From an uncultured Gemmatimonadota bacterium (GTDB lineage Bacteria; JAAXHH01): a stretch of 64,000 bases of DNA. Position 1 is the stretch's first letter. Each line of letters opens with the position of its first letter. The position numbers and the translations under genes are program-made. Below are positions 3,860-60,486 of this stretch, piece by piece. The DNA is taken from positions 928,001-992,000 of the forward strand of contig OX638340.1 of assembly GCA_951812955.1 (NCBI GenBank), read 5' to 3'. Under the pieces are notes generated by a model. That model worked only from the letters and a program-made list of their open reading frames with translations. It did no database searches and was not told the DNA's origin.

Positions 3860-4675
3860 ATGGTCTCTAAAACCCGTCTTAACGCCGTGAGTTTTCTGAA
3901 TACCAGGCCCTTGACCTATGGCCTGGAACGCGGAGGCCGGGATCACGGATTCGAAATCCTCTATGATATCCCCTCCGTATGCGCCAGGCAGGTGAGGACG
4001 GGCGAAGCCTCGGCGGGCGTCATTCCCAGCATCGAATACGCACGCAGTGCGGTACCTTACTCAATCGTTCCCGAGGTATCCATCGCATCCAACGGTCCAG
4101 TCGCCAGCATTCTACTGTTCCACAGGGTGCCGGTCCGGGGCATCCGAAAGGTCGCGATGGATGTGAGTTCCCGGACAGCCGCGGCCCTGGTCCATATCGT
4201 CCTGTATGAGCGGTACGGCCTGGAAATCGAATCGGTCGACCACCCGCCGGACGTATCTGCGATGCTTGAACGGGCGGACGCGGCCCTGGTCATCGGCGAT
4301 CCTGCCCTGGAGAATACGAACCGGCCCGAACCCCGTCTGGACCTGGGGCAGGCATGGCGGGAACTGACCGGGTTGCCTTTTGTGTACGCCTTCTGGGCGG
4401 GGAAGGATGGTGGTCTCACGCCCGGCGAGGTCGAACTGCTGATCGCGTCGAAGAACCAGGGGATGTCCGCCTTCGACGAGATCGCCGAAGTTCACGCGAG
4501 GGACCGCTCACATCCGACTTCGTACTACGCGTCGTACCTCAGCGATAACCTGGTTTACGACCTGGGAGAAGAGGAACAACGAGGACTCATGGAGTTTTAC
4601 GGGATGGCCCATGTTCGCGGCCTGATCCCGTACGTACCGGAATTGCGTTTTTATCCGCGTCAAGGAAGGAGATGA
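3860..4675 (+). CDS. mqnA: Chorismate dehydratase / futalosine synthase MqnA
   Basis: N-terminal VSFLNTRPL motif and a periplasmic-binding-protein-like fold typical of MqnA. Neighbouring mqnC/mqnE genes give cluster context. Confidence 0.72.
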   Translation: MVSKTRLNAVSFLNTRPLTYGLERGGRDHGFEILYDIPSVCARQVRTGEASAGVIPSIEYARSAVPYSIVPEVSIASNGPVASILLFHRVPVRGIRKVAMDVSSRTAAALVHIVLYERYGLEIESVDHPPDVSAMLERADAALVIGDPALENTNRPEPRLDLGQAWRELTGLPFVYAFWAGKDGGLTPGEVELLIASKNQGMSAFDEIAEVHARDRSHPTSYYASYLSDNLVYDLGEEEQRGLMEFYGMAHVRGLIPYVPELRFYPRQGRR

Positions 4676-5637
4676 TCATGGCATCGGCAACAACGGTCGG
4701 CATCGGCACGGGAAGCAACCGCCGCGAGAACGTGCGCGTGGCGGTGGAACGCTCCGCCCCGCAATTGGCCTCCCTCATGGGGGAAGAGGTCATGCTCAAG
4801 CCTAATTTCCTCTCCGGCACCAACCCGGTGGTATGCACCCACCCGGACGCGGTCCGCGGCGTGCTGGACGTCATCATGACCCTGCCGGAGAAACCGCGCC
4901 GGGTACTGATCGCAGAGGGCGGCAATGAATCCGTGCCGGGAGAGTGCTTCCGTCACATGGGATACACCGACATCCCGGACGAATACGACATCCCCATCGA
5001 ACTGGTGGACCTGAACCAGGAGACCAGGTGGCGAAATACCCGGGTGTACATGGTCGACGGCACCTGGACTACGGTCAGGATGCCGCGTACCGTGCTGGAC
5101 TGTCCCTGCGTTATCTCGGTCGCCGTGGCCAAGACCCATGACGGCGCCATGGTTACCCTGGCGCTGAAGAATCTCATCATGGGTACGATATTGAAGAAAG
5201 ACCGAATCAAGGTCCATGGCTATACGACCCACCACGACCGGCGCCATCCTCCGGAAGCCCGGGCGCTCAGCAGGAACCTGATCCGCCTCGCCCGCCACCT
5301 CTACCCCCACTACAGCGTGGTGGACGGTACGGTCGGCATACAGGGTAACGGTCCAGGGGGAACTGACACCGTGCCGCTGGGCCTGGCGGCGGCCGGGGAG
5401 GACACCATCGCCGTGGACGCCGTCATTTCAAAGGCCATGGGATTCGAACCATTGGAGGTGGGAACGGTATTCTACGGGGACGCAATCGGCCTGGGCGTGG
5501 GCGATCTGGAACGCATCTGCGTGAACGGCGGACGGCTGGATGAACTTGCCCTGTCCTTCAAGGGGCATGAATCCATCGATCTGCAGCGTCAGTGGGCTTT
5601 CGAAGGCGCGTGGGAATCGGCGGCGGTCGGCGGTTGA
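4672..5637 (+). CDS. DUF362 domain protein
   Basis: The start codon overlaps the mqnA stop (ATGA), which suggests translational coupling. DUF362-like composition (KPNF..., VVDG, GNGPGGTD). Its stop codon lies inside the first unit of a 22-bp tandem repeat. Confidence 0.55.
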   Translation: MIMASATTVGIGTGSNRRENVRVAVERSAPQLASLMGEEVMLKPNFLSGTNPVVCTHPDAVRGVLDVIMTLPEKPRRVLIAEGGNESVPGECFRHMGYTDIPDEYDIPIELVDLNQETRWRNTRVYMVDGTWTTVRMPRTVLDCPCVISVAVAKTHDGAMVTLALKNLIMGTILKKDRIKVHGYTTHHDRRHPPEARALSRNLIRLARHLYPHYSVVDGTVGIQGNGPGGTDTVPLGLAAAGEDTIAVDAVISKAMGFEPLEVGTVFYGDAIGLGVGDLERICVNGGRLDELALSFKGHESIDLQRQWAFEGAWESAAVGG

Positions 5638-5706
5638 AACGGCGGCGGTCGGCGGTTGAAACGGCGGCGGTCGACGGTTGAAACGGCGGCGGTCGACGGT
5701 TGAAAC
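5619..5706. repeat. Four tandem copies of the 22-bp unit ggcggcggtcg(g/a)cggttgaaac, plus a partial fifth
   Basis: Read directly from the sequence. Each unit repeats the last codons of the DUF362 gene (AAVGG) together with the TGA stop. It lies in a convergent intergenic region. Confidence 0.9.
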
Positions 5707-5737
5707 GGCGGGGACACAGGCATCTACAGGTTTGAGA

Positions 5738-7286: not shown

Positions 7287-7504
7287 TACACGTCCCCTTC
7301 GTCTGTACGCTGCTGAAGCGAAAACCGGCCTTTTGAATGTGCCATCATTAAACACCTCGTATTCGGTTTCCGCAAGGATAAATTGCGCGGGGGCAGGTAG
7401 ACCCGTCCGGGGCATTGGTGCGGCAGGGACGCGGCAGAGCAGCGGCACGGCAGGGACGCGGTGTGCACGACGGCCGTCCGTCCATTTCCTGCACCTGCCG
7501 ATGG

Positions 7505-9199
7505 TCACGGATTCGACGCGAAAACGGCGGTCTCGGCGCCCGCGGCGCTGTATCCCGGGCAGAACCCCGCCTCGATGTAGGGACAGGGACTCCGGGCGAT
7601 GATCACGCGGATACCTGCCTGGCGCAGGCCCTTGCCGATCACGTCTCGTGTCCGGACTTCGTCCCACGGATCGACGGTTTCGTTCAGCGAGACCGGACAG
7701 GCTCCCACGATATCGTCTATACTAAGCGCCGTCGTCTCGTGGCCCAGTTCGGTTCCGCCCAGGTTGGGTGTACCCTGGAACCCGGACAGGGCCGTCGTGG
7801 CGTTGTCCAGTATGAGGATGAGCAGATCCGACCCCTGGTGGACCACATTGAACAGCGCGTTTGCGCTCAGGTGGAAGAAGTCGGAATCCCCGACGACGGC
7901 AATCACCGGGTCGGTCACGCCGGACAGAACGAGACCCGATGCGATTCCGATGCTCGAACCCATGGAATACTTCACGTCGAGCATCTCGAAGGGCGGCGTA
8001 TTGATCTTGATCGCGCAACCGGGATCGACCACGTACACCGGCGACATGCCGTATCGCGCACTCAAATCGCGCAGGATTTCGAAAACCGGTGTATAGGGGC
8101 AGTTCGACGGCAGTCCGGCCTCGCTGGGCAGGTACTTCTGTTCGTCTTCCGGCGAGAAGTCTCGGTCGGGTTTATAACCGGGGACGAAACCGGCCAGGGA
8201 CTCCGCGATCTGCCAGCGGAACAACTCCCCTTCCCGCGGCACGGCCCGGTCGTGCTTGCCGCTGACCGGCGTCGATATCTTCGCATCATAGGCAACCGAC
8301 TTGATCAACGTTTCCAGAAAGGGCTCGTTCTCTTCCAGTACCAGGGTTTTCTCCGTCGAACGTAGAAATCCGGTGATCTGGTCGGCGGGCAGCGGCCACA
8401 GGGTGGACAGCTTGAGGATGGACAGACCGGAAGTGTCCGCCCCATGAAGCACGTCCATCAACTTGGTGTGAATTACGCCCGCGGCGATTATGCCGGTCTT
8501 TCCCGTGCCGGTTACGGTGTTGAAATCCGCCCGTTCGAAATGCCGCGCGATCGATTCGAGCCGGTCGTGCAGACGCCTGTGCAATCGGACGGCGTTTCCG
8601 GGAACCGAAATCCACCGCATGGGATGCCGTTCGAAGGCATGGGGCCGCACGTAAGTCGTACGAGGAATCTCTGGTCGTTCCAGTTCTTCTTCCATCGTGC
8701 CGAAGGATTTCGTGATCCGCACGATGAAGGGCATCTGCGTTTCGCGGGAAAGCCGGAACGCCTCCCGCGTCATTGCGATCCCTTCCGAGGGTGTCGCCGG
8801 TTCCAGCATGGGCAGTTCGCTACCCCAGGCGATCGGACGGGTATCCTGGTCGTTCTGGGAGGCCCATGCGCCCGGATCGTCCCCGAGCAGGATGACCAGC
8901 CCCGCGCCCACGTCCGTCAGGTTGGCCACCATGACGGCGTCGAGTGCGACGTTGAACCCGACGCCCTTGCACCCCATCAGGGCCGGCACCCCTCCGATGG
9001 ACGCGCCGACCGCCGTCTCAAAGGCGACCTTTTCGTTGGCGGACCATTCAACGTGCAGACCGTGACTGTCCACGAAGCCGCGCAGGAACTCGATGGTGCT
9101 GCTGCTCGGCGAACCAGGATAGCTTGTCGCCACCGCGACACCCGACTGCAGTGCGCCGTAGGCGATGGCCTGGTCACCGGTGATTCGCATCCCGGCCAC
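7505..9199 (-). CDS. Indolepyruvate/2-oxoacid:ferredoxin oxidoreductase alpha-subunit-like TPP enzyme (IorA-like)
   Basis: Full-length IorA-like N-terminal and TPP-binding regions. The C-terminal ferredoxin domain is short or absent, and there is no adjacent iorB. Confidence 0.6.
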   Translation of the reverse strand: MAGMRITGDQAIAYGALQSGVAVATSYPGSPSSSTIEFLRGFVDSHGLHVEWSANEKVAFETAVGASIGGVPALMGCKGVGFNVALDAVMVANLTDVGAGLVILLGDDPGAWASQNDQDTRPIAWGSELPMLEPATPSEGIAMTREAFRLSRETQMPFIVRITKSFGTMEEELERPEIPRTTYVRPHAFERHPMRWISVPGNAVRLHRRLHDRLESIARHFERADFNTVTGTGKTGIIAAGVIHTKLMDVLHGADTSGLSILKLSTLWPLPADQITGFLRSTEKTLVLEENEPFLETLIKSVAYDAKISTPVSGKHDRAVPREGELFRWQIAESLAGFVPGYKPDRDFSPEDEQKYLPSEAGLPSNCPYTPVFEILRDLSARYGMSPVYVVDPGCAIKINTPPFEMLDVKYSMGSSIGIASGLVLSGVTDPVIAVVGDSDFFHLSANALFNVVHQGSDLLILILDNATTALSGFQGTPNLGGTELGHETTALSIDDIVGACPVSLNETVDPWDEVRTRDVIGKGLRQAGIRVIIARSPCPYIEAGFCPGYSAAGAETAVFASNP

Positions 9200-17225: not shown

Positions 17226-18737
17226 ATGGACATGGACTATAATGGATTGCAGGTCGCGACGCTCGATGAGTCTCTGAGCGACGCCATTGCCGCGCGCGGT
17301 GGCAAACCTGTGGTATCCAGGGCGGACGACACGGAGAGCCTGGATTCCTTTCTTGAAAACCTGGCACGGGACGACATCGCCGTACTGTTACTGACAGAAC
17401 CTGAACATGTCCGTGCGTTGTTCGGTCGCGCGTCCGCAACAGGGCGCGTCGAGCCCCTGCTGGATGCAGTCAGGCAAATTGCCGTGGGTTCGGCGGGACC
17501 CGCGTGCACGAAAATCTGGAGAAACCACCATCTTTCCGTCGATTTCGAACCTGACGGGACCGGCGGAGAAGCACTCGTGTCGGGCATGGCGCGCCTCGCC
17601 GCATACCTGGTCAACAAGAAACGCACCGCCGTGGACAGTGGGGTGGACACCTCGCACTGGCAACGCATCGACATGCGGTGGCATTTCGAAAGCGATCCCT
17701 ACGGAACCCGGGGCGAGTCTGCCTTCCTCCGGGCGTGCCGCCGGGAACCGACGGAATATACGCCCGTATGGCTGCTGCGTCAGGCGGGCCGATACCAGCG
17801 GGCCTATCGGGAACTGAAATCCGACCTGGATTTCCTGGACATGTGCAAGACCCCGGAACTCACCGCCGAGATCACGTTGATGGCCGTAGAACGCCTGGGG
17901 GTGGACGCCGCCATCCTATTCGCAGACATCCTCCCGCTGCTGCAACCGATGGGCTTCCACCTGGAATACGTCAAGGGACAGGGACCCGTCATTCGCAATC
18001 CGATTCGGTCGGACCGGGCCGTGGATCAACTCGAGGAGGAAGGACCGGAATCCCAGCATTTCGTTTACGAGGCCATCCGCATGGCATTGCCGGCGCTTCC
18101 ACCCCATATCCCGCTCATCGGTTTTTCCGGCGCTCCATTCACCCTGGCCGCCTATGCCATCGAGGGGCAGAGTTCGCGGGACTTCAGGCGCGTCAAGACC
18201 TTCATGTATTCCGAACCGAGGGCCTGGCATGCCTTGATGGCGAAACTGGCGAGAACCGTCACGGCCTACCTCAACGAACAGATCGAGGCGGGCGTTCATG
18301 CCGTACAGTTATTCGACAGCTGGGCAGGCTGCCTTTCGCCCGATGATTACAGGACATTCGTCCTTCCCCATACCGGGTACGTCTTCTCCAATCTGCGCCC
18401 CGGCGTTCCTTCCATACATTTCGGGGTCTGCACCGGTTCTCTGCTCGATTTGATGCGGGAGGCGGGTGGTGAGGTCATCGGGCTGGATTGGCGCGTGGAC
18501 CTGTCCGAAGCATGGCAGGACCTTGAACACGAGGTGGCGGTCCAGGGAAACCTGGATCCCATGGTCCTCTTTTCGTCCCCCGATGTAATCCGCCAGCATG
18601 CGGCGACCGTCCTGCACAAGGCCGGGGGACGTCCCGGACATGTCTTCAACCTGGGTCACGGCATACTGCCCGGCACACCGGAAGACCACGTCATCGCGCT
18701 CGTGGACGCCGTGCATGAATTGGGAATCGCTCGATGA
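17226..18737 (+). CDS. hemE: Uroporphyrinogen decarboxylase HemE with an N-terminal extension of about 160 aa
   Basis: Residues from about 165 onward match HemE (FLRACRREPTEYTPVWLLRQAGRYQ...). The N-terminal 160 aa is an extra domain with weak HemD-like resemblance. Confidence 0.8.
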   Translation: MDMDYNGLQVATLDESLSDAIAARGGKPVVSRADDTESLDSFLENLARDDIAVLLLTEPEHVRALFGRASATGRVEPLLDAVRQIAVGSAGPACTKIWRNHHLSVDFEPDGTGGEALVSGMARLAAYLVNKKRTAVDSGVDTSHWQRIDMRWHFESDPYGTRGESAFLRACRREPTEYTPVWLLRQAGRYQRAYRELKSDLDFLDMCKTPELTAEITLMAVERLGVDAAILFADILPLLQPMGFHLEYVKGQGPVIRNPIRSDRAVDQLEEEGPESQHFVYEAIRMALPALPPHIPLIGFSGAPFTLAAYAIEGQSSRDFRRVKTFMYSEPRAWHALMAKLARTVTAYLNEQIEAGVHAVQLFDSWAGCLSPDDYRTFVLPHTGYVFSNLRPGVPSIHFGVCTGSLLDLMREAGGEVIGLDWRVDLSEAWQDLEHEVAVQGNLDPMVLFSSPDVIRQHAATVLHKAGGRPGHVFNLGHGILPGTPEDHVIALVDAVHELGIAR

Positions 18738-20155
18738 AAGTCGTCGTGGTCGGCGGGGGCATAGCCGGGTTGAGCGCCGCGCACCGGCTGGCGGAAACGA
18801 AACGTCACGACCTGGAAGTGACGCTGCTGGAGCGGACGGACCGATTCGGTGGCACGATACGCACGATCGAGCTCGGCGGATGTCTGGTCGAACTGGGTCC
18901 GGATTCCTTTCTTTCGTCCAAGCCCTGGTTGACGCAACTGGCTGAGCGATTGGGCGTGGCTGATCGGATCATCGCCACTGCAACCACCCATCGCAGGTCC
19001 CACGTCGTCCATCGCGGCAAGCTGCACCCGTTGCCCGACGGGTTCCTGATGATGGCGCCTACCCGCCTCTGGCCCATGGTGACCACTTCGCTTTTTTCGT
19101 GGACGGGCAAGATCCGGTGCGCTTTGGACCTGGTACTGCCACGTTCGCGTGCAACCGGAGACGAGAGTCTGGGCGCGTTCGTCCGCCGGCGTTTCGGCGG
19201 AGAGGTGCTCGAGCGCGTCGTACAACCGCTCATCGGGGGCATCTATGCGGGAGACCCCGATAGGCTCAGCCTGAAGGCCACCATCCCGCGGTTCCTCGAG
19301 ATGGAAACCCGATACCGCAGTGTCATACGGGCCATGGTCGCACAGCGGCGCGCGGCCGCCCGGCGCGGAGGCGGTCCCACGGCCGGCAGCGGCGCGCGCT
19401 ACGGTGAACTGGTCACCTTCGACCATGGCATGAAAACCATCGTGCAGGCGTTGATGGAAAGCCTTCCGGAAGAAACGATGCGCACGCATTCCGACGTCGT
19501 GAGCCTGAGCCGCGAAGGGGACCTCTGGCGTCTGGCATGCGGCGACGGACAGCATATCGATGCGGATGCGGTCATTCTTGCCCTGCCTGCCCGAAAGGCC
19601 GCGGATCTGCTTCGCGGCATCGAAACGGGCCTTCATGATGAACTGTCGGCCATCCCCCACGCGTCGACGGCCGTCCTGAACCTCGTGTACCGGCGTTCGG
19701 ATGTGCCCCATCCCATGGACTGCTTCGGGTTTGTGGTTCCCGCGGTAGAGGAACGGGATATCATCGCCTGCACCTTCAGCAGCGTTAAGTTCCCGAACCG
19801 GGCGCCGGAGGACCACGTGCTGTTGCGCGCTTTCATCGGCGGCGCCCGGCAGCGGCACATGCTCGGTTTCGATGACGGGGAGCTGAACCGGATCGTCCGG
19901 GCGGAGCTGAAAGACCTCATGGGCATCGAAGCCGCTCCTCTTCACACCGCGCTTGCCCGGTACCCGGACGCCATGCCCCAGTACCTCGTCGGCCATAGCC
20001 GGCGCGTTGAGCGGATCGAATCACTGCTCGATCGGTATCCCGGACTTGCGTTGGCAGGCAATGCCTATGGCGGCGTGGGCCTGCCCGATTGCGTGCGTTC
20101 GGGTGAACAGGCAGCGGAGCGGGTACTGGAGATGGAGGAGAACGGCTCCCGTTAG
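18734..20155 (+). CDS. hemY: FAD-dependent protoporphyrinogen/coproporphyrinogen III oxidase (HemY/HemG family)
   Basis: MKVVVVGGGIAGLSAAHRL FAD-binding N-terminus and HemY-like length. A 4-nt ATGA overlap with hemE indicates translational coupling. Confidence 0.75.
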   Translation: MKVVVVGGGIAGLSAAHRLAETKRHDLEVTLLERTDRFGGTIRTIELGGCLVELGPDSFLSSKPWLTQLAERLGVADRIIATATTHRRSHVVHRGKLHPLPDGFLMMAPTRLWPMVTTSLFSWTGKIRCALDLVLPRSRATGDESLGAFVRRRFGGEVLERVVQPLIGGIYAGDPDRLSLKATIPRFLEMETRYRSVIRAMVAQRRAAARRGGGPTAGSGARYGELVTFDHGMKTIVQALMESLPEETMRTHSDVVSLSREGDLWRLACGDGQHIDADAVILALPARKAADLLRGIETGLHDELSAIPHASTAVLNLVYRRSDVPHPMDCFGFVVPAVEERDIIACTFSSVKFPNRAPEDHVLLRAFIGGARQRHMLGFDDGELNRIVRAELKDLMGIEAAPLHTALARYPDAMPQYLVGHSRRVERIESLLDRYPGLALAGNAYGGVGLPDCVRSGEQAAERVLEMEENGSR

Positions 20156-20236
20156 CAGATGGAGAAGGGCGACTTTCGCTAGCAGTTGAAGGAGCACGAC
20201 TCCTGTTCGGAGATGGAGCAGGGCGACTCTTGTTGA
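20129..20236 (+). repeat. Three in-frame tandem copies of the hemY 3' terminus, each ending in a stop codon (EMEENGSR*, QMEKGDFR*, then EMEQGDSC*)
   Basis: Read codon-by-codon from the sequence: TAG at 20153-20155, TAG at 20180-20182 and TGA at 20234-20236 are all in the hemY frame. Confidence 0.85.
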
Positions 20237-20276
20237 CCGACGCCGCCCGCGGGATTCATGCGTCGTGTTCCCGTTC

Positions 20277-20369
20277 TCCGGATGACATTCAATCCGTCCC
20301 CCGGTCCCGCAGCATCGTGTTCCAGCTCGCCGGATGCCATTCAAGCAGTCCCCTGGTCCCGCAGCATCG
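20277..20369 (-). repeat. Duplicated sulP 3' terminus: two imperfect copies of about 40 bp, one encoding the real C-terminus MLRDQGTA* and the other MLRDRGTD* just downstream
   Basis: Read from the sequence on the minus strand. The second copy is frame-shifted relative to sulP. Confidence 0.8.
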
Positions 20370-21969
20370 CAATCGCCGTCTTCCGGGCTTCCTCCATGCT
20401 TCCGACCAGGCGCCAATCGGGGATGCTCCTTACGATGTCGAAGGACTTCAGTGTTTTAGATGCTGCGCCCGAGAGTCCCATCACGATCGTACCGGTTTTC
20501 TGTTCTTCGGCGACCTCAAACAGCCGTTGAATCACAAGGGCCGCACTGTCGTCCACATACTGGGTGTCAGAAAAATCGAAGATGACCACCTGGTGTTCCT
20601 TGATGTCTTCACCAATGGCCATGACCAGTTTCCTTGATGAAGCGATGGTAAAGCTACCCCTGAGAGAGACCAGACCCACCCGAGCTGTATGGGGTTCCAC
20701 ACCGGCCTGGATTCCTTCGGTGGAGAAAAACTCGCGGTCCAACAGGGGCACTGAGACCACGTTGTCGAGCTCCAGGTGTTCCAGCTGCCGGGCGTGGACC
20801 ATCCCGGCGGCGATCAGCCCGATGGCCACTGCCGTGATCAGATCGATGAAAACCGTGAGGCCCAGCGTGAGCGCCATCACCAGCAGATGTTCCCGCTGGA
20901 GACGATGAATCCGGGCGAGTACCCGCCAGTCGATGATGTTCCATCCGACCACAATGAGGATACCGGCCAGGACGGCATGGGGAACCGGCTCGACAAACCT
21001 GCCCAACCCGAGTAGAATCAACAGCAGGAACACGGCGCGCAGAACGCCTGAGACCGGAGTCTGTCCTCCCGAACGGATATTCGCCACGGTACTGACGGTG
21101 GCACCTGATCCAGGAAGACCGCCAAACAGCCCTGCCGCCATGTTGCCTATACCCTGACCCACCAGTTCCCGGTCAGGATTATGGCTTGATCCCGTGAGCG
21201 AATCCGCGATGAGGCAGGCGAGCAGACTGTCCACGGAGCCCAAAAGGGCGATAATCAGCGCGGGTTGGACCGCATACAGCAGAAACGACCAGGAAGGCAA
21301 CTGGAACTGTAGCGCGGGCAGTCCGGCCGGTATCTCTCCAATAACCGGCACGTCACTCAGCCAGAATACGCCCACCATCGTGCCGGCCAGCAAAGCCAGC
21401 AAGGGCGCGGGCACGTACCGGCTCAGCTGCCGAGGCCAGAAAACCGCCAGGACAAGGGTGACCACGGCGATGGCTACTGCGCTGAAGTTCGTGCTGTTCA
21501 ATGCATCGGGAAGGGATCGGATCGCGGCAAGTGCGCCCCCAGGGGCGACAGGCGTGCCGAGAAACGGAAGGGCCTGCATGAGGATGATGATGATGCCGAT
21601 ACCGGACATGAATCCGGATACAACCACATGGGGGGTGTAGGCGATGTATCGGCCCAAATTGGAAATACCCAGCAGCACCTGGATCGCTCCGGCGAGCATG
21701 ACAACGATCAGCGCCTCCGAGAGCGTGCTCACCTGGCTGGTGACGATTAACGCCATCGCGATCGTGACGGATGGCGCAGGACCGGAAACCACCGTCCGCG
21801 TGCCGCCGAACACTGAAGCAAAGAAACCTACCGCGATCGCGCCGTACATGCCCGCGGCCGCACCCATGCCGGACGCAACGCCAAAGGCCAGTGCGAAAGG
21901 CAATGACACCACGGCGGAGGTGAGTCCGCCGGTAAAATCACCTCTGAATGTACCCGGATCATACTTCAA
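20341..21969 (-). CDS. SulP family anion permease with a C-terminal STAS domain
   Basis: Multi-TM SulP core (GIGNMAAGLFGGLPGSGA) and a C-terminal STAS domain. Confidence 0.8.
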   Translation of the reverse strand: MKYDPGTFRGDFTGGLTSAVVSLPFALAFGVASGMGAAAGMYGAIAVGFFASVFGGTRTVVSGPAPSVTIAMALIVTSQVSTLSEALIVVMLAGAIQVLLGISNLGRYIAYTPHVVVSGFMSGIGIIIILMQALPFLGTPVAPGGALAAIRSLPDALNSTNFSAVAIAVVTLVLAVFWPRQLSRYVPAPLLALLAGTMVGVFWLSDVPVIGEIPAGLPALQFQLPSWSFLLYAVQPALIIALLGSVDSLLACLIADSLTGSSHNPDRELVGQGIGNMAAGLFGGLPGSGATVSTVANIRSGGQTPVSGVLRAVFLLLILLGLGRFVEPVPHAVLAGILIVVGWNIIDWRVLARIHRLQREHLLVMALTLGLTVFIDLITAVAIGLIAAGMVHARQLEHLELDNVVSVPLLDREFFSTEGIQAGVEPHTARVGLVSLRGSFTIASSRKLVMAIGEDIKEHQVVIFDFSDTQYVDDSAALVIQRLFEVAEEQKTGTIVMGLSGAASKTLKSFDIVRSIPDWRLVGSMEEARKTAIAMLRDQGTA

Positions 21970-27153: not shown

Positions 27154-28311
27154 ATGACCATCGGCGTCCCTACTGAAACCAGTCCGGGCGAGCGGCGCGT
27201 ATCCATCGTTCCGGCCGGGGTTTCCAACCTGGTGAAGGCGGGATGCGCCGTCCGGGTCTCCGCGGGCGCGGGCCGGGAGGCGGGCATCTCGGACGCAGAA
27301 TACGAAGAAGCCGGCGCCACAGTCGTGCAGGAGCGCGGATCCGTATTCGACGAGTCCGACGTGATCGTGCAGGTAAGAGGCGGCGGCGCGAATCCCGACT
27401 CAGGCATGGCGGACGTGGAGCGATTGCGCGAGGGACAGGTGCTGATCAGTTTCCTGGAACCGTTGTCGGCCCCGGCGGAGATCAAGGCGCTCTCCAACCG
27501 GCGGGTGACCGCCTGCGCCATGGAATTCATACCGCGGACATCCCGTGCGCAAAGCATGGACGCCCTTTCTTCCCAGGCCAACATCGGGGGGTACAAGGCC
27601 GCGCTGGTAGCGGCCGAATACCTGCCCAGACTTTTCCCCATGATGATGACCGCGGCCGGGACCATAACGCCCGCCCACATTTTCGTGGTCGGCGTCGGTG
27701 TGGCCGGGCTGCAGGCCATCGCCACGTGCAAGCGGCTGGGCGCCGTGATCCAGGCCTACGACGTGCGTCCCGCCGTCAAGGAGCAGGTCCAGAGCGTCGG
27801 GGCCCGGTTCGTGGAGCTGGAACTGGATACGGCCGATTCGGAAGGATCGGGTGGGTACGCCCAGGCCATGGACGAGCAGTTCTATGCAAAACAACGCGAG
27901 ATGATGGCCCGCGTCGTATCTGAAAACGACGTCGTGATCACCACGGCCGCCGTACCCGGCAAGCCAGCGCCCGTGCTGGTTACAGAAGACATGATTAAAA
28001 GCATGCGGCCCGGCTCGGTCGTGATCGATCTCGCTGCGGAGCGGGGGGGAAACTGCGAAATCACCGAACCCGGCAGGACCGTCGTCAAGCACGGCGTGAC
28101 GCTCGTGGGCGAGGTGAATCTTCCTTCAACCGTGCCCTTTCATGCCAGCCAGATGTATTCCAACAACATCGTGAATTTCCTTAAGCTGATGATAAACGAC
28201 GGTACGCTTGACGTGGGCATCGACGACGACATCGTGCAAGGCGCAACGGTAACCCGCGACGGCGAGATCGTCAACGAGCAGGTGAGCGCCCTGCTTACCG
28301 AAGCCGGGTGA
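27154..28311 (+). CDS. pntA: NAD(P) transhydrogenase alpha subunit part 1 (PntAA)
   Basis: Alanine-dehydrogenase-like dI domain and a GVGVAGLQA NAD-binding motif. Confidence 0.85.
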   Translation: MTIGVPTETSPGERRVSIVPAGVSNLVKAGCAVRVSAGAGREAGISDAEYEEAGATVVQERGSVFDESDVIVQVRGGGANPDSGMADVERLREGQVLISFLEPLSAPAEIKALSNRRVTACAMEFIPRTSRAQSMDALSSQANIGGYKAALVAAEYLPRLFPMMMTAAGTITPAHIFVVGVGVAGLQAIATCKRLGAVIQAYDVRPAVKEQVQSVGARFVELELDTADSEGSGGYAQAMDEQFYAKQREMMARVVSENDVVITTAAVPGKPAPVLVTEDMIKSMRPGSVVIDLAAERGGNCEITEPGRTVVKHGVTLVGEVNLPSTVPFHASQMYSNNIVNFLKLMINDGTLDVGIDDDIVQGATVTRDGEIVNEQVSALLTEAG

Positions 28312-28379
28312 CGGGCGGAGCGACTGCGATCGAAGCCGGGTGACGAGCGGAGCACCATCGAACGAAGCGAGGAGTTCCC

Positions 28380-31370: not shown

Positions 31371-32252
31371 ATGATGCAATCGCAGAAGGCAGATGAGATC
31401 AACGTGGACGACCGGGACTGGCGCGCGTTGACCCGGGGCGAGCGTATCCGGATGATCGAAGAGGAGGGCTATCTGATCATACCGGACTGGATCCCGCCCG
31501 GCTATCTGGCGGAACTGAAAGCGGAATGCAGAAAACTCGAAACGGTCGGACGGGACTACAGCGAAAAGCAACGGGGCTGCAGGGATCCCCACCTGAGCAG
31601 CCGGAAACTGGCCGAACTCATCGCCTACGAACCCACTGTCGCATTCCTGGAAGCGTTGTTCGGCGACCGACTCGTTTTTATTCACTATACCTACGACCGG
31701 TCCGAGCCCGGCACCCCTGGCATCAGTCTACATACCGACGGTCAGCCCTACGGATCCAAGATATTCGGTTACGAAGGGAGTTGTCCCATCACCGTGCGGG
31801 TACTCTACTATCTCGACGACCTGACGATGGACGTATCACCTTTCCGGGTGGTTCCAAGGTCCCATCTCTGCATGCACGCGGACGCCCATCCGTACAAAAG
31901 GTACGACGGGCATCCCGAAGAGGTCGTCGTACCGTGCACCGCGGGTTCGGCGCTGTTTCTCAACCACCGGACGTTTCACGGCACCCTGCCCAACAGGGGA
32001 AACCGCTCGCGCGCCATGCTTGCGGTGGCTTACCGACCGGCCTGGGCCGGTCCGATCGTGGACGTTGCGCCGCGGGACCCGGCTGACCTGGAACGGATGC
32101 CCGATTCCGTCCGTCCCTTCCTGGGCGACCCGAGCATGCGATCTTACGAGTTCGGTGTTGGCAACAAACCCGAGGGGATGTCGGCCGGCGCGCCGGGGAT
32201 GAACCCAAGCAGGTGGGAAAGCCCGCGTGAGGGACGCGCGCGGAAAGCGTAA
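31371..32252 (+). CDS. PhyH family Fe(II)/2OG dioxygenase
   Basis: PhyH-like core with the His-x-Asp...His triad context. An AGGAGG Shine-Dalgarno lies immediately upstream of the ATGATG start. Confidence 0.68.
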   Translation: MMQSQKADEINVDDRDWRALTRGERIRMIEEEGYLIIPDWIPPGYLAELKAECRKLETVGRDYSEKQRGCRDPHLSSRKLAELIAYEPTVAFLEALFGDRLVFIHYTYDRSEPGTPGISLHTDGQPYGSKIFGYEGSCPITVRVLYYLDDLTMDVSPFRVVPRSHLCMHADAHPYKRYDGHPEEVVVPCTAGSALFLNHRTFHGTLPNRGNRSRAMLAVAYRPAWAGPIVDVAPRDPADLERMPDSVRPFLGDPSMRSYEFGVGNKPEGMSAGAPGMNPSRWESPREGRARKA

Positions 32253-36190: not shown

Positions 36191-36313
36191 CAATCCGGCC
36201 GCGCAGACTTCGGCCGCGCAGACTCAGGCCGCCGAGGCCCTTTCTGGCGGCATGGCCACCCAATCCGTCCTCATCACCCAACCCGGCCCCATCGTCTTAT
36301 ACCGGTATTTCCT

Positions 36314-47469: not shown

Positions 47470-47790
47470 ATGGAACTCGCCCACCTGTTGTTAACGCCGG
47501 CCACGCTATTGACGGCCTTCATCTTCTTCTGGAATCAGGCAAAGACCGGAAGGGACGAACTCCGGCGGGAACTCAATACGGATATCGGGGAATTTAAAGA
47601 GGAATTGAAGGAGGAAATCATGGCCTTTCGCCGGGAAGTCGCCGCGGTCCGCGACGAAATGAAGGCCGAGATGAGGGAGGAAATCTCCCCCCTGCGGACG
47701 GAAGTGGCCGCCATCCGTACGGAAATGCACGACATGAATGGTCGCCTCGGACGTGTCGAAGGTCTGCTCAGAACGTCGGACGCCGGCTGA
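47470..47790 (+). CDS. Small membrane-anchored coiled-coil protein of unknown function
   Basis: One N-terminal TM helix then a charged heptad-like region (EFKEELKEEIMAFRREVAAVRDEMKAEMREEI). Its stop lies within a 2x 20-bp tandem duplication. Lower-GC context. Confidence 0.4.
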   Translation: MELAHLLLTPATLLTAFIFFWNQAKTGRDELRRELNTDIGEFKEELKEEIMAFRREVAAVRDEMKAEMREEISPLRTEVAAIRTEMHDMNGRLGRVEGLLRTSDAG

Positions 47791-47813
47791 TTTCATCGGA
47801 CGTCGGCTGATTT
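47776..47813 (+). repeat. Tandem duplication (period 20) of the stop-containing 3' end of the small protein: tcggacg(c/t)cggctgattt x2
   Basis: Read from the sequence. Confidence 0.85.
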
Positions 47814-54810: not shown

Positions 54811-54893
54811 ACAACCCCGGGCGCCGGTGAACAACGACACGGGCCAGGCAAAAAAGGTTGACATTACCTGGCAGGCTTCGCGGAACCTGGCGA

Positions 54894-54983
54894 GTCGTTT
54901 AGCCGCACGTAGTCGTTGGGGCGCGGGTCGTTTAGCCGTACGTAGTGTTTGTGACACGAGTCGTTTAGCCGCACGTAGTCGTT
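54894..54983. repeat. Three copies of the 24-bp unit gtcgtttagccg(c/t)acgtagt(c/g)(g/t)tt, separated by 9-bp spacers (period 33)
   Basis: Read from the sequence in a convergent intergenic region downstream of the M20 gene. Too short and too few units to be a CRISPR array; no cas genes. Confidence 0.85.
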
Positions 54984-54994
54984 TTGGCGCGCGG

Positions 54995-58177: not shown

Positions 58178-58990
58178 TCAGGAAGTCAGGCCACGACCGT
58201 GCCGCTTGCTACGCTCGGCGCTTTCCCGAATGAATGCGAGCAGGTACTCGACTTCTACGGTCCGTTCCACTTCATCCACAACCGCTTGAACCGCCTGAGA
58301 AACATTGAGCGAAGACCGGTGGAGCAGACGATAGACCTCTTTGAGCGTGCGGATGGCCTCATCGGAGAACCCGCTGCGTTTCAGACCGATGGTGTTGAGT
58401 GATACAGGTTTCAGCGGGTCGTGGGCGTACTTGATGTACGGACAGATGTCCTTGGTAACCATGCCGCCCCCGCTGATGAAAGCGTTGCGGCCAATTCGGA
58501 CGAACTGGTGTACCGCGACGAGTCCGCCGGTTATGGCGAAATCTTCGATTTCCACGTGGCCTCCCAATTGCGTCCCGTTGGCGAGAATCACGCGGTTGCC
58601 GATCACGCAGTCGTGGGCGACGTGCACGTAGGCCATGACCAGGGTATCGCTTCCGATCACCGTCTTCCCCAGGGCGCTGGTCCCGCGGTTCAGCGTGGTG
58701 AATTCGCGGATCGAAGTCCGGTCGCCGATTTCCAGTATGGACTGTTCACCAATGAATTTCTGATCCTGGGGTATGGACCCCACCACGGCTCCGTGATAGA
58801 TCCTGCACTCCGCGCCGATGCGCGTATGGGCGCCGATCAGCGCGCCGGATGCGATCTGCGTACCCGCTCCGATGATCACATTGGGTTCCACGATCGTATA
58901 CGGACCGATGCTGCACCCGGAACCCAACTCCGCGTCAGGATGGACGATGGCTGTCGGATGGACCTTGGTTTCGGTGGTTATGTCCGTCAC
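58178..58990 (-). CDS. lpxA: Acyl-ACP--UDP-N-acetylglucosamine O-acyltransferase LpxA
   Basis: Left-handed beta-helix hexapeptide repeats and an LpxA C-terminal helical domain. Confidence 0.85.
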   Translation of the reverse strand: MTDITTETKVHPTAIVHPDAELGSGCSIGPYTIVEPNVIIGAGTQIASGALIGAHTRIGAECRIYHGAVVGSIPQDQKFIGEQSILEIGDRTSIREFTTLNRGTSALGKTVIGSDTLVMAYVHVAHDCVIGNRVILANGTQLGGHVEIEDFAITGGLVAVHQFVRIGRNAFISGGGMVTKDICPYIKYAHDPLKPVSLNTIGLKRSGFSDEAIRTLKEVYRLLHRSSLNVSQAVQAVVDEVERTVEVEYLLAFIRESAERSKRHGRGLTS

Positions 58991-60486
58991 TGCGGCGTCT
59001 CCTGGACTGCCTGGTCTGCCTGGACTGCCTGGTCTGCCTGGTCTGCCTGGTCTGTCCGGTCTCCCTGTTCTGCCCGGTCTGCCCGGTCCGTAACCATTGC
59101 CATCAGGGTCGCTTCGGCGACGAGTTCATCGTTCACGTATGCCTTCCCTTCCATCTTGCAGGCGTGCATGCGCATTCGTTTCAGTTCCAATTCGAAGCGG
59201 ATCTGGTCGCCGGGTTTTACCAGTCTTCGAAACCTGGCATGATCGATGCCCATGAAATACGCCATTTTGCTCTTCGGTTCTTCAATCGTATTGAGCAGTA
59301 GCAGACCTCCGGCCTGTGCCATGGCCTCAACGATCAGGACGCCCGGCATGACGGGATGGCCAGGGAAGTGGCCCGCGAAAAAGGGCTCGTTGATAGTCAC
59401 GTTCTTGAGCGCTACCACGCGTTTCCCCGGTTCCATCTGGATTACCCGGTCGATGAGCAGAAAGGGATATCGATGGGGGAGAATGCGCAGGATGTCCTCG
59501 ATTTCGAGGACCGCTTCGGGTGCCGGCGCCGGTGAATCCATATTCCCTTTTTCCGGTTTCCTCTTAACGCCCGCATCGCGAATCCTTCGCACGAGCTCGA
59601 CGTTGGCGGAGTGGGAGGACCGCGCTCCGAACACCTGAGCCCTGAGCGGCGCTCCGAGCAGGGCCAGGTCGCCGATCAAGTCGAGCGCCTTGTGCCGGCA
59701 CGGTTCGTTGTCGAAGCGCAGCGGCCGGGTGCCCACAATTCCGTTCTCGCCGATGACCACCCTGTCCTCCACGCCGAACAGATCCTTCAACTCATCCAGT
59801 TCCTCCTCGGACAGGTCCATGTCCGCGATGACCACCGCGCTTTCCAGGCTGCCGCCCTTGATCAGCCCCTTTTCACGCAGGGCCTTGATGTCACTGAGGA
59901 AGGTCCAGGTCCGTGCCGGCGCGAATTCGGTTACGAACTCGTCTTCCAGGGAATAGAGCACGGTGTGCTGGCTGGCGAGATTTGATTTCTGGTAGTCGAC
60001 CATGTAAGTGAGATGGAAATCATCGGAAGGCATGACGACGAGTTCCTTCAACAGGCCGTTTTCCCGCTCCGAATAGAGCACGGGATTTTCCAGTTCCAGG
60101 TATTCCCTGGGCGCGTCTTGTTCGACGATTCCGGCTTCGATCAACGCGTTCACGAAAGGAATGGCGCTGCCGTCGCAAATCGGTGGCTCATCGCCGTCCA
60201 GCTCGATCCGGATGTTGTCCAGTCCCAGGCCCGCGACGGCGGCCAGGACGTGTTCCACGGTGTGTATCCGTACCCCGTCCCGTGCCAGGTTCGTCCCCCT
60301 GGTGGTATCGACCACGTAGTCGATATCCGCAGGGATTTCCAACCGGTCGGGATGGTCGACGCGTATAAACCGGATCCCGTCGTTAACGGTACCCGGCCTG
60401 AAAGTCAGCGTCGCCTGCCCGCCGGTATGCAAGCCTATTCCCTCAACGGATCTGGTGGATCCAATGGTACGTTGATTTTTAAGCAT
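58987..60486 (-). CDS. lpxC-fabZ: Bifunctional UDP-3-O-acyl-GlcNAc deacetylase / 3-hydroxyacyl-ACP dehydratase (LpxC-FabZ fusion)
   Basis: N-terminal LpxC domain (GIGLHTG, HTVEHVLAA) and a C-terminal FabZ hot-dog domain (PHRYPFLLIDRV, FFAGHFP). A 4-nt overlap with lpxA. A repeat-encoded (QAD)n C-terminal tail. Confidence 0.85.
   Translation of the reverse strand: MLKNQRTIGSTRSVEGIGLHTGGQATLTFRPGTVNDGIRFIRVDHPDRLEIPADIDYVVDTTRGTNLARDGVRIHTVEHVLAAVAGLGLDNIRIELDGDEPPICDGSAIPFVNALIEAGIVEQDAPREYLELENPVLYSERENGLLKELVVMPSDDFHLTYMVDYQKSNLASQHTVLYSLEDEFVTEFAPARTWTFLSDIKALREKGLIKGGSLESAVVIADMDLSEEELDELKDLFGVEDRVVIGENGIVGTRPLRFDNEPCRHKALDLIGDLALLGAPLRAQVFGARSSHSANVELVRRIRDAGVKRKPEKGNMDSPAPAPEAVLEIEDILRILPHRYPFLLIDRVIQMEPGKRVVALKNVTINEPFFAGHFPGHPVMPGVLIVEAMAQAGGLLLLNTIEEPKSKMAYFMGIDHARFRRLVKPGDQIRFELELKRMRMHACKMEGKAYVNDELVAEATLMAMVTDRADRAEQGDRTDQADQADQAVQADQAVQETPQ
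59001..59090 (-). repeat. Ten tandem copies of a 9-bp unit (cctggtctg and variants) encoding the low-complexity DQADQADQAVQADQAVQ tail of LpxC-FabZ
   Basis: Read from the sequence; in-frame (3-codon) repeat. Confidence 0.85.

Follow-up and report, generated by a model that had tools for sequence, protein, structure and literature searches.

Introduction

Bacterial minisatellites, or variable-number tandem repeats (VNTRs), are built of units of 10-100 bp whose number changes by slipped-strand mispairing. The array considered here lies in a 64,000-nt stretch of DNA from an uncultured Gemmatimonadota bacterium (assembly GCA_951812955.1, contig OX638340.1, positions 928,001 to 992,000), called the window below and numbered from its first letter. 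It stands at the 3′ end of a hemY-like gene, where the last codons and the stop codon recur as 27-nt units in the spacer towards a convergent SulP-family permease gene. We consider this hemY array very probably a minisatellite, produced by tandem duplication at the DNA level and tolerated since the protein was left unchanged. Like a VNTR, it is head-to-tail, has a constant period and occupies an intergenic spacer; its copy number varies among related genomes (1, 2, 4, 5), and another repeat of the window, at 28299, has a direct repeat at its junction. It differs from a typical VNTR in that its copies are old and degenerate (~70% identity) and in that a gene end serves as its first unit. Moreover, the copy number is equal in three records of a sister species, so the hemY locus is not evidently hypervariable.

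Other described repeats also touch gene ends. MIRU elements, as Supply et al. 1997 reportedly described them, are short tandem intergenic units that overlap the ends of the flanking open reading frames (ORFs) with little disturbance of expression. The hemY array shares with them the short tandem intergenic units and the overlap with an ORF end, but MIRUs are a dispersed family of related sequences described as inserting at start codons, whereas the 27-mer is confined to a single locus and comes from the local gene end. In the tandem repeats of Borgs, some of which have their first unit within a gene end, most intergenic units have lengths that are no multiple of 3, whereas the length of units within ORFs always is one (Schoelmerich et al. 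2023, PMC9879509). The repeats of the window show the same divisibility pattern. However, Borg repeats are perfect and A-rich, arose very recently and are packed extremely densely, whereas those of the window are GC-rich and mostly decayed, and their density (2.8 per 10 kb) differs little from that in related loci (2.1; L001-L020) and in control loci (1.9; L021-L080). Finally, the array recalls fail-safe tandem stops in having in-frame stops after the primary one, with the difference that the stops of the hemY copies were inherited by duplication and are being lost; in eubacteria, no selection for additional downstream stops was detected (Ho & Hurst 2019, PMC6764699).

Results

Four units in register at the end of hemY

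By direct codon reading, hemY ends in ...VLEMEENGSR, followed by a TAG stop at 20153-20155. The original prediction, made from the letters of the window, had read LEMEENGSR-TAG and then QMEKGDFR-TAG in the same frame, and these codons are correct. The next 54 nt had been taken as a single segment ending in EMEQGDSC-TGA; the ending and its frame are right, but the segment holds two units (20183-20209 and 20210-20236). The idea that the end of the gene had been copied in tandem and had diverged also stands, since the last eight codons and the stop recur and outgroups have a single unit, but there are three extra copies and not two. In all, four 27-nt units lie in register over 20129-20236, the gene end and three extra copies, and two of the three extra copies keep an in-frame stop. 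The features of the hemY side are as follows.

18734..20155, plus strand: hemY-like protoporphyrinogen/coproporphyrinogen oxidase gene, 473 amino acids, directly downstream of hemE (Pfam Amino_oxidase over residues 10-465, E=3e-66)
20129..20155, plus strand: unit 1, EMEENGSR and TAG, the functional end of hemY (24/27 bases shared with the L002 gene end, 22/27 with that of L005)
20156..20182, plus strand: unit 2, non-coding copy, QMEKGDFR-TAG in the hemY frame (19-20/27 against units 1 and 4)
20183..20209, plus strand: unit 3, non-coding copy, QLKEHDSC-TCG, its stop lost to TCG (17-20/27 against the other units)
20210..20236, plus strand: unit 4, EMEQGDSC-TGA, stop at 20234-20236 (23/27 against L005), running on into the conserved GACGCCGCC... 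flank
20237..20262, no strand: unique spacer, remnant of the ancestral convergent intergenic region of ~49 nt, aligning with the L017 and L005 spacer

Tandem Repeats Finder (TRF) reported the array with period 27, 3.7 copies and a score of 95. Any two units have 17-20 of 27 bases in common (divergence 26-37%), whereas random 27-mers of the window are alike at a mean of 7.1 bases (standard deviation 2.3), with P(≥17) = 3e-4. A degenerate consensus of the 27-mer gave three matches, all within the hemY locus, and none in 100 shuffles. Unit 4, which adjoins the conserved spacer, is the most outgroup-like.

The shared frame is simply a consequence of the period, as 27 nt make nine codons. The original prediction had seen in them a series of backup stops with short readthrough peptides, which would imply that additional stops are selected as a fail-safe, or that a programmed readthrough of the TAG is brought to an end after a short defined peptide. 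A homologous in-frame stop in two of the three extra units is what such selection would leave. However, the stop of unit 3 is lost, the peptide sequence is not conserved, and most differences between units, laid out in 27-nt register, fall on codon positions 1 and 2 and are mostly non-synonymous. The base composition of the window alone would place an in-frame stop within nine codons in about 25% of cases, the copies are absent from outgroups, and the eubacterial survey found no such selection (PMC6764699). Moreover, the six stop-spanning arrays of the window have periods of 22, 27, 52, 32, 22 and 20, so that hemY alone shows a multiple of 3 (about two would be expected by chance). We regard fail-safe stops as extremely unlikely, and the backup stops with them. 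The original prediction had itself allowed that the frame might be a coincidence peculiar to this locus: in the window scan five of the six stop-spanning arrays are indeed out of frame, but stop-spanning duplications as such do recur.

The array in related genomes

Relatives came from a scan of species-representative genomes; they are sponge- and coral-associated metagenome-assembled genomes (MAGs) labelled Latescibacterota or Gemmatimonadetes. Over the shared loci, nucleotide identity to the window (blastn) is 94-95% for L001, a 3.9-Mb chromosome, ~96% for L002 and ~83% for L005 and L017. The hemY orthologues are 66-93% identical in amino acids and carry a C-terminal tail beyond ...AAERVL that varies in length and sequence. 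Divergence from the window at fourfold degenerate hemY sites (K4) is 0.12 for L002, 0.155 for L001 and ~0.5 for both L005 and L017.

The 27-mer is present once in L005 and in L017, twice in L001, four times in the window and five times in L002, L081 and L082. The last two are metagenome contigs whose hemY end and array are nearly identical to those of L002, with one base different, and the three records appear to represent one species. In L001 and L002 the arrays, too degenerate for TRF, which gave none at the hemY 3′ end there, were laid out by hand in 27-nt register. The single-unit outgroups end hemY in ...LEMEKDDSR-TGA (L005) and ...LEMAKDDSC-TAA (L017), with the conserved spacer directly after, and in a multiple alignment with the relatives the extra units form an insertion between conserved flanks. 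The array is thereby shown to be a derived tandem duplication whose copy number varies among species. Unit-to-unit Jukes-Cantor distances are 0.32-0.51, which places them between the L002 split (0.12) and the outgroup split (0.5); the original duplication is therefore old and falls in the stem of the clade formed by the window, L001 and L002.

An assembly artefact, with reads expanded or mis-joined within the repeat, had been named by the original prediction as a way in which it could fail. The chance of this is negligible in our view, for expansion by artefact would give identical copies whereas these are 26-37% diverged, and arrays of several homologous units are present in records that were deposited separately, among them a long chromosome-level MAG and the three sister-species records with their near-identical five-unit array.

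Separate repeats were noticed at the same junction in other relatives. In L009 an independent array of five 17-nt units (7460-7544) lies across the SulP stop. In L016 (7397-7429), with equivalents in L013 and L004, a separate 16-nt repeat of two units sits inside the 3′ end of hemY; the tail G-A-D-T-G-Q-L-T of this sub-clade is seemingly encoded by the repeat in a shifted frame.

The convergent gene and the growth of the spacer

The other side of the spacer carries a duplication of its own.

20341..21969, minus strand: SulP-family permease gene with a STAS domain, convergent to hemY (Pfam Sulfate_transp E=2e-81, and STAS)
20263-20369, minus strand: 52-nt tandem duplication spanning the SulP stop at 20341-20343, with two full copies at 20263..20366 (TRF period 52, 2.1 copies, score 165)

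The two copies of the 52-mer are identical at 45 of 52 bases, and the distal one (20263-20314) is non-coding. A period of 52 is no multiple of 3, and the copied SulP stop consequently falls out of frame. In the multiple alignment the 52-mer is single in L017 and L002 and duplicated only in the window. The hemY-SulP spacer measures 185 nt, of which the extra 27-mers account for 81 nt and the extra 52-mer for 52 nt; 133 nt, or 72%, are thus copied gene ends. In L017 only ~49 nt separate the two stops, and by this comparison the spacer has grown from ~49 to 185 nt. Within an ancestral spacer of ~49 nt a 52-nt duplication could not be confined and had to span a stop; for tolerated 27-nt duplications, about two thirds would be expected to do so.

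The SulP/STAS gene is missing from L001 (7436-7582), L002 (2450-2676) and L005 (7420-7656) and is retained in L017 and L009. A remnant of ~55 nt of the SulP 3′ end persists beside hemY in L001 and L002, and L081 and L082 have the same sequence downstream of hemY as L002. These losses and remnants mark the region downstream of hemY as a hot spot of structural change. Upstream of hemY, the hemE ORF (17226-18737, plus strand) encodes 503 amino acids with a URO-D domain at residues 165-498; the ~160 residues ahead of it give a sub-threshold HemD (HEM4) match, and the ORF is possibly a fusion of hemD and hemE, or what is left of one.

Search for a function or a mobile element

We looked for terminator-like and promoter-like sites over 19800-20700 and found none. 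RNA folds of the array region were no more stable than those of shuffled sequences (z = -0.30 on the plus strand, +1.30 on the minus strand), and Rfam gave no match at gathering score over the whole window. A dispersed element of the REP/MIRU type was rejected: the consensus with three mismatches allowed matches only 20129-20236, and blastn at word size 7 revealed no further site of the 27-mer in the window or in the non-orthologous parts of the relatives' loci. A diversity-generating retroelement, with a VR/TR pair at a gene 3′ end, was dropped with no formal test, as the 27-mers are adjacent instead of forming a separated pair of ~100 nt and their differences are not limited to one base.

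The units are purine-rich, and their GGAG/GGA repeats could in principle offer sites for a protein or for ribosomes (CsrA-type or anti-Shine-Dalgarno), or the array could act as an insulator or terminator. Six GGA motifs occur in the 108 nt of the array, where the background would give 2.6; within the unit, the xAGxTGGAGxAG half is the better conserved one, and arrays persist in all three close lineages. The GGA richness is, however, inherited from the Glu-Met-Glu-Glu codons of the gene end, and the count is not exceptional, since at least seven GGA, one above the count of the array, are found in ~2% of 108-nt windows; on these grounds a CsrA or ribosome-binding GGA array was set aside, with no search made for a csrA gene. 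Besides the absence, in the searches above, of a stable or conserved structure, a terminator or an Rfam family, copy number and sequence are very different between genomes that are 94-96% identical, one unit suffices in the outgroups, and the other arrays of the window have unrelated units. A functional element in the 3′ untranslated region (3′-UTR) or spacer is, on balance, very unlikely.

Other repeats across stop codons

Besides the hemY array and the SulP 52-mer, four repeats of the window span a stop codon.

5614..5711, plus strand: near-perfect (97%) 22-nt repeat of 4.5 copies spanning the TGA of a DUF362 gene (4672..5637), in a convergent spacer (TRF)
28299..28368, plus strand: 32-nt duplication across the pntAA stop, TGA (gene at 27154..28311), with pntAB downstream; single copy in L001 and L011
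32224..32301, plus strand: degenerate 22-nt (11-nt) repeat across the stop, TAA, of a gene of the PhyH family (31371..32252) (TRF)
47776..47813, plus strand: 20-nt duplication of 1.9 copies spanning the TGA of a small ORF (47470..47790) whose gene call is weak (TRF)

The host genes are real for DUF362, PntAA (followed by PntAB) and PhyH, and weak for ORF 47470-47790. The clearest junction is that at 28299, where a clean insertion of 32 nt has CGAAGC as its first bases and the same 6 nt, as a direct repeat, after its end; beside it, pntAB has kept its Shine-Dalgarno sequence. Such a junction classically marks slipped-strand mispairing between short direct repeats. The last unit of the 5614-5711 array is a partial one of 10 nt, consistent with slippage, as at 28299; the expansion looks recent, and no other locus is as good a candidate for copy-number variation that is still going on. 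The stop-spanning arrays have no common offset, unit length or sequence.

Two further arrays, at 54890-54991 (33-nt, 3.1 copies) and 36194-36232 (15-nt, 2.6 copies), lie within 4 nt of stop codons. They were rejected as copies of gene ends, their units being unlike the adjacent ones, and are counted as purely intergenic. Within a gene, the LpxC and FabA/FabZ-like fusion (58987-60486, minus strand) has a C-terminal tail made of a 9-nt in-frame repeat of ten copies (58997-59088) that encodes (D-Q/R-A)n.

Position of repeats relative to genes

The gene map was derived from self-trained codon usage and contains 52 genes covering 91% of the window; tandem repeats were counted at a TRF score of at least 40 and merged. 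Eighteen repeats resulted, six spanning a stop, none spanning a start, seven intergenic (two of them within 10 nt of a stop) and five within genes. Random placement would give 0.8 stop-spanning repeats instead of six (P = 2e-4). The further 3′-terminal duplications to which the original prediction had alluded are real. Arrays are present in three of the five convergent spacers. The ratio of stop-spanning to start-spanning repeats is 6:0 in the window, 9:1 in the relatives and 10:2 in unrelated loci, and the share of stop-spanning repeats tracks genome compactness.

Discussion

Constant-period head-to-tail copies and a derived state, the definitions of a minisatellite or VNTR that we tested, are both found at hemY, and the array is very probably one. 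We propose the following scenario. The tandem duplication most likely arose by replication slippage, or by unequal exchange, at short direct repeats, and the 27-nt segment that was copied consisted of the last eight codons of hemY and its stop. As the first copy still ends in a stop, the protein would have stayed the same and the event would have been invisible to selection; the extra copies would have drifted since as non-coding spacer. Slippage at hemY itself we infer. The array is ordinary and probably neutral, neutrality too being something that we infer.

The apparent targeting of gene ends can be understood along the same lines. A duplication that includes the stop codon is the only kind that touches a gene without altering its protein. 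Where 91% of the sequence is coding and convergent spacers are very short, duplications that last are those in spacers or across stops. We therefore take the clustering at gene ends to be mainly a survivorship effect, and the asymmetry between stops and starts is what a filter that preserves both protein and expression predicts.

To put a number on this, a crude neutral filter served as the null, in which only duplications leaving every protein intact are kept. Among the 23 related loci the stop-spanning share is 26% against 14-16% expected (p = 0.05-0.16), in totals that count orthologous arrays more than once, and in unrelated, mostly planctomycete-type loci it is 10% against ~6% (p = 0.14-0.16).

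Several observations weigh against this reading of the array. In the window, stop-spanning repeats make up 46% of the non-genic ones (6/13), against 18-24% under the filter (p = 0.02-0.07), and an excess of 1.5-2x is found in relatives and controls as well; the filter model may be too simple, or duplication may truly favour the 3′ ends of genes. The hemY junction has no clear microhomology, with 2-3 nt discernible after decay. The 5′ half of the non-coding copies (xAGxTGGAGxAG) is better conserved than the 3′ half, 0.82 against 0.66 in a sample of seven units only, which could hint at constraint. Lastly, the non-coding units of the window and of L002 do not pair as orthologues (18-20/27 at best) despite a K4 of 0.12, which implies remodelling of the array or accelerated change.

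The first of these points bears on the main competitor of the survivorship effect, namely a duplication process that is itself biased to gene 3′ ends, for instance where forks stall or templates are switched as transcription terminates or converges, and not just a bias in what is retained. Besides the roughly twofold excess over the filter, similar in relatives and controls, it can call on the arrays in three of the five convergent spacers of the window and on the independent hemY-SulP arrays of L009 (17 nt x5) and of L016/L013 (16 nt x2, inside the hemY 3′ end). However, the excess is modest and is equal in the unrelated planctomycete-type loci, the counts in relatives repeat orthologous arrays, and the arrays, as noted, lack a common offset, unit length and sequence. 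Error in the model could suffice, and plausibly accounts for the excess: promoter-side spacer is constrained, small genes may have been missed, and a copy that still codes decays more slowly, which keeps stop-spanning arrays detectable for longer. We consider a bias of this kind improbable. As the excess is general and not a peculiarity of the genome of the window, the undescribed system acting on gene ends that the original prediction had envisaged is not supported. A broader form of the same idea, in which tandem duplication in this sponge- and coral-associated, Latescibacterota-like lineage is mechanistically favoured at gene 3′ ends, for instance by slippage linked to termination or convergent transcription, and is a major source of new intergenic DNA, also seems to us unlikely. 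In a variant of it, the GGAG-rich array may have been co-opted as a binding platform in the 3′-UTR.

With the hemY array read as a tolerated tandem duplication, the locus is first of all a cautionary case, for in-frame "backup" C-termini with their own stops can arise trivially from the duplication of a 27-nt segment. The clustering of repeats at gene ends is in the same way largely explicable by which duplications spare proteins. If the modest residual excess at stop codons also held across whole genomes, it would indicate a termination-linked bias in duplication, and if such a bias at gene 3′ ends is true, it could now and then create new C-terminal tails. Altogether, a compact bacterial genome can gain intergenic DNA from copied gene termini, and the hemY locus illustrates one way in which C-terminal extensions can find their raw material.

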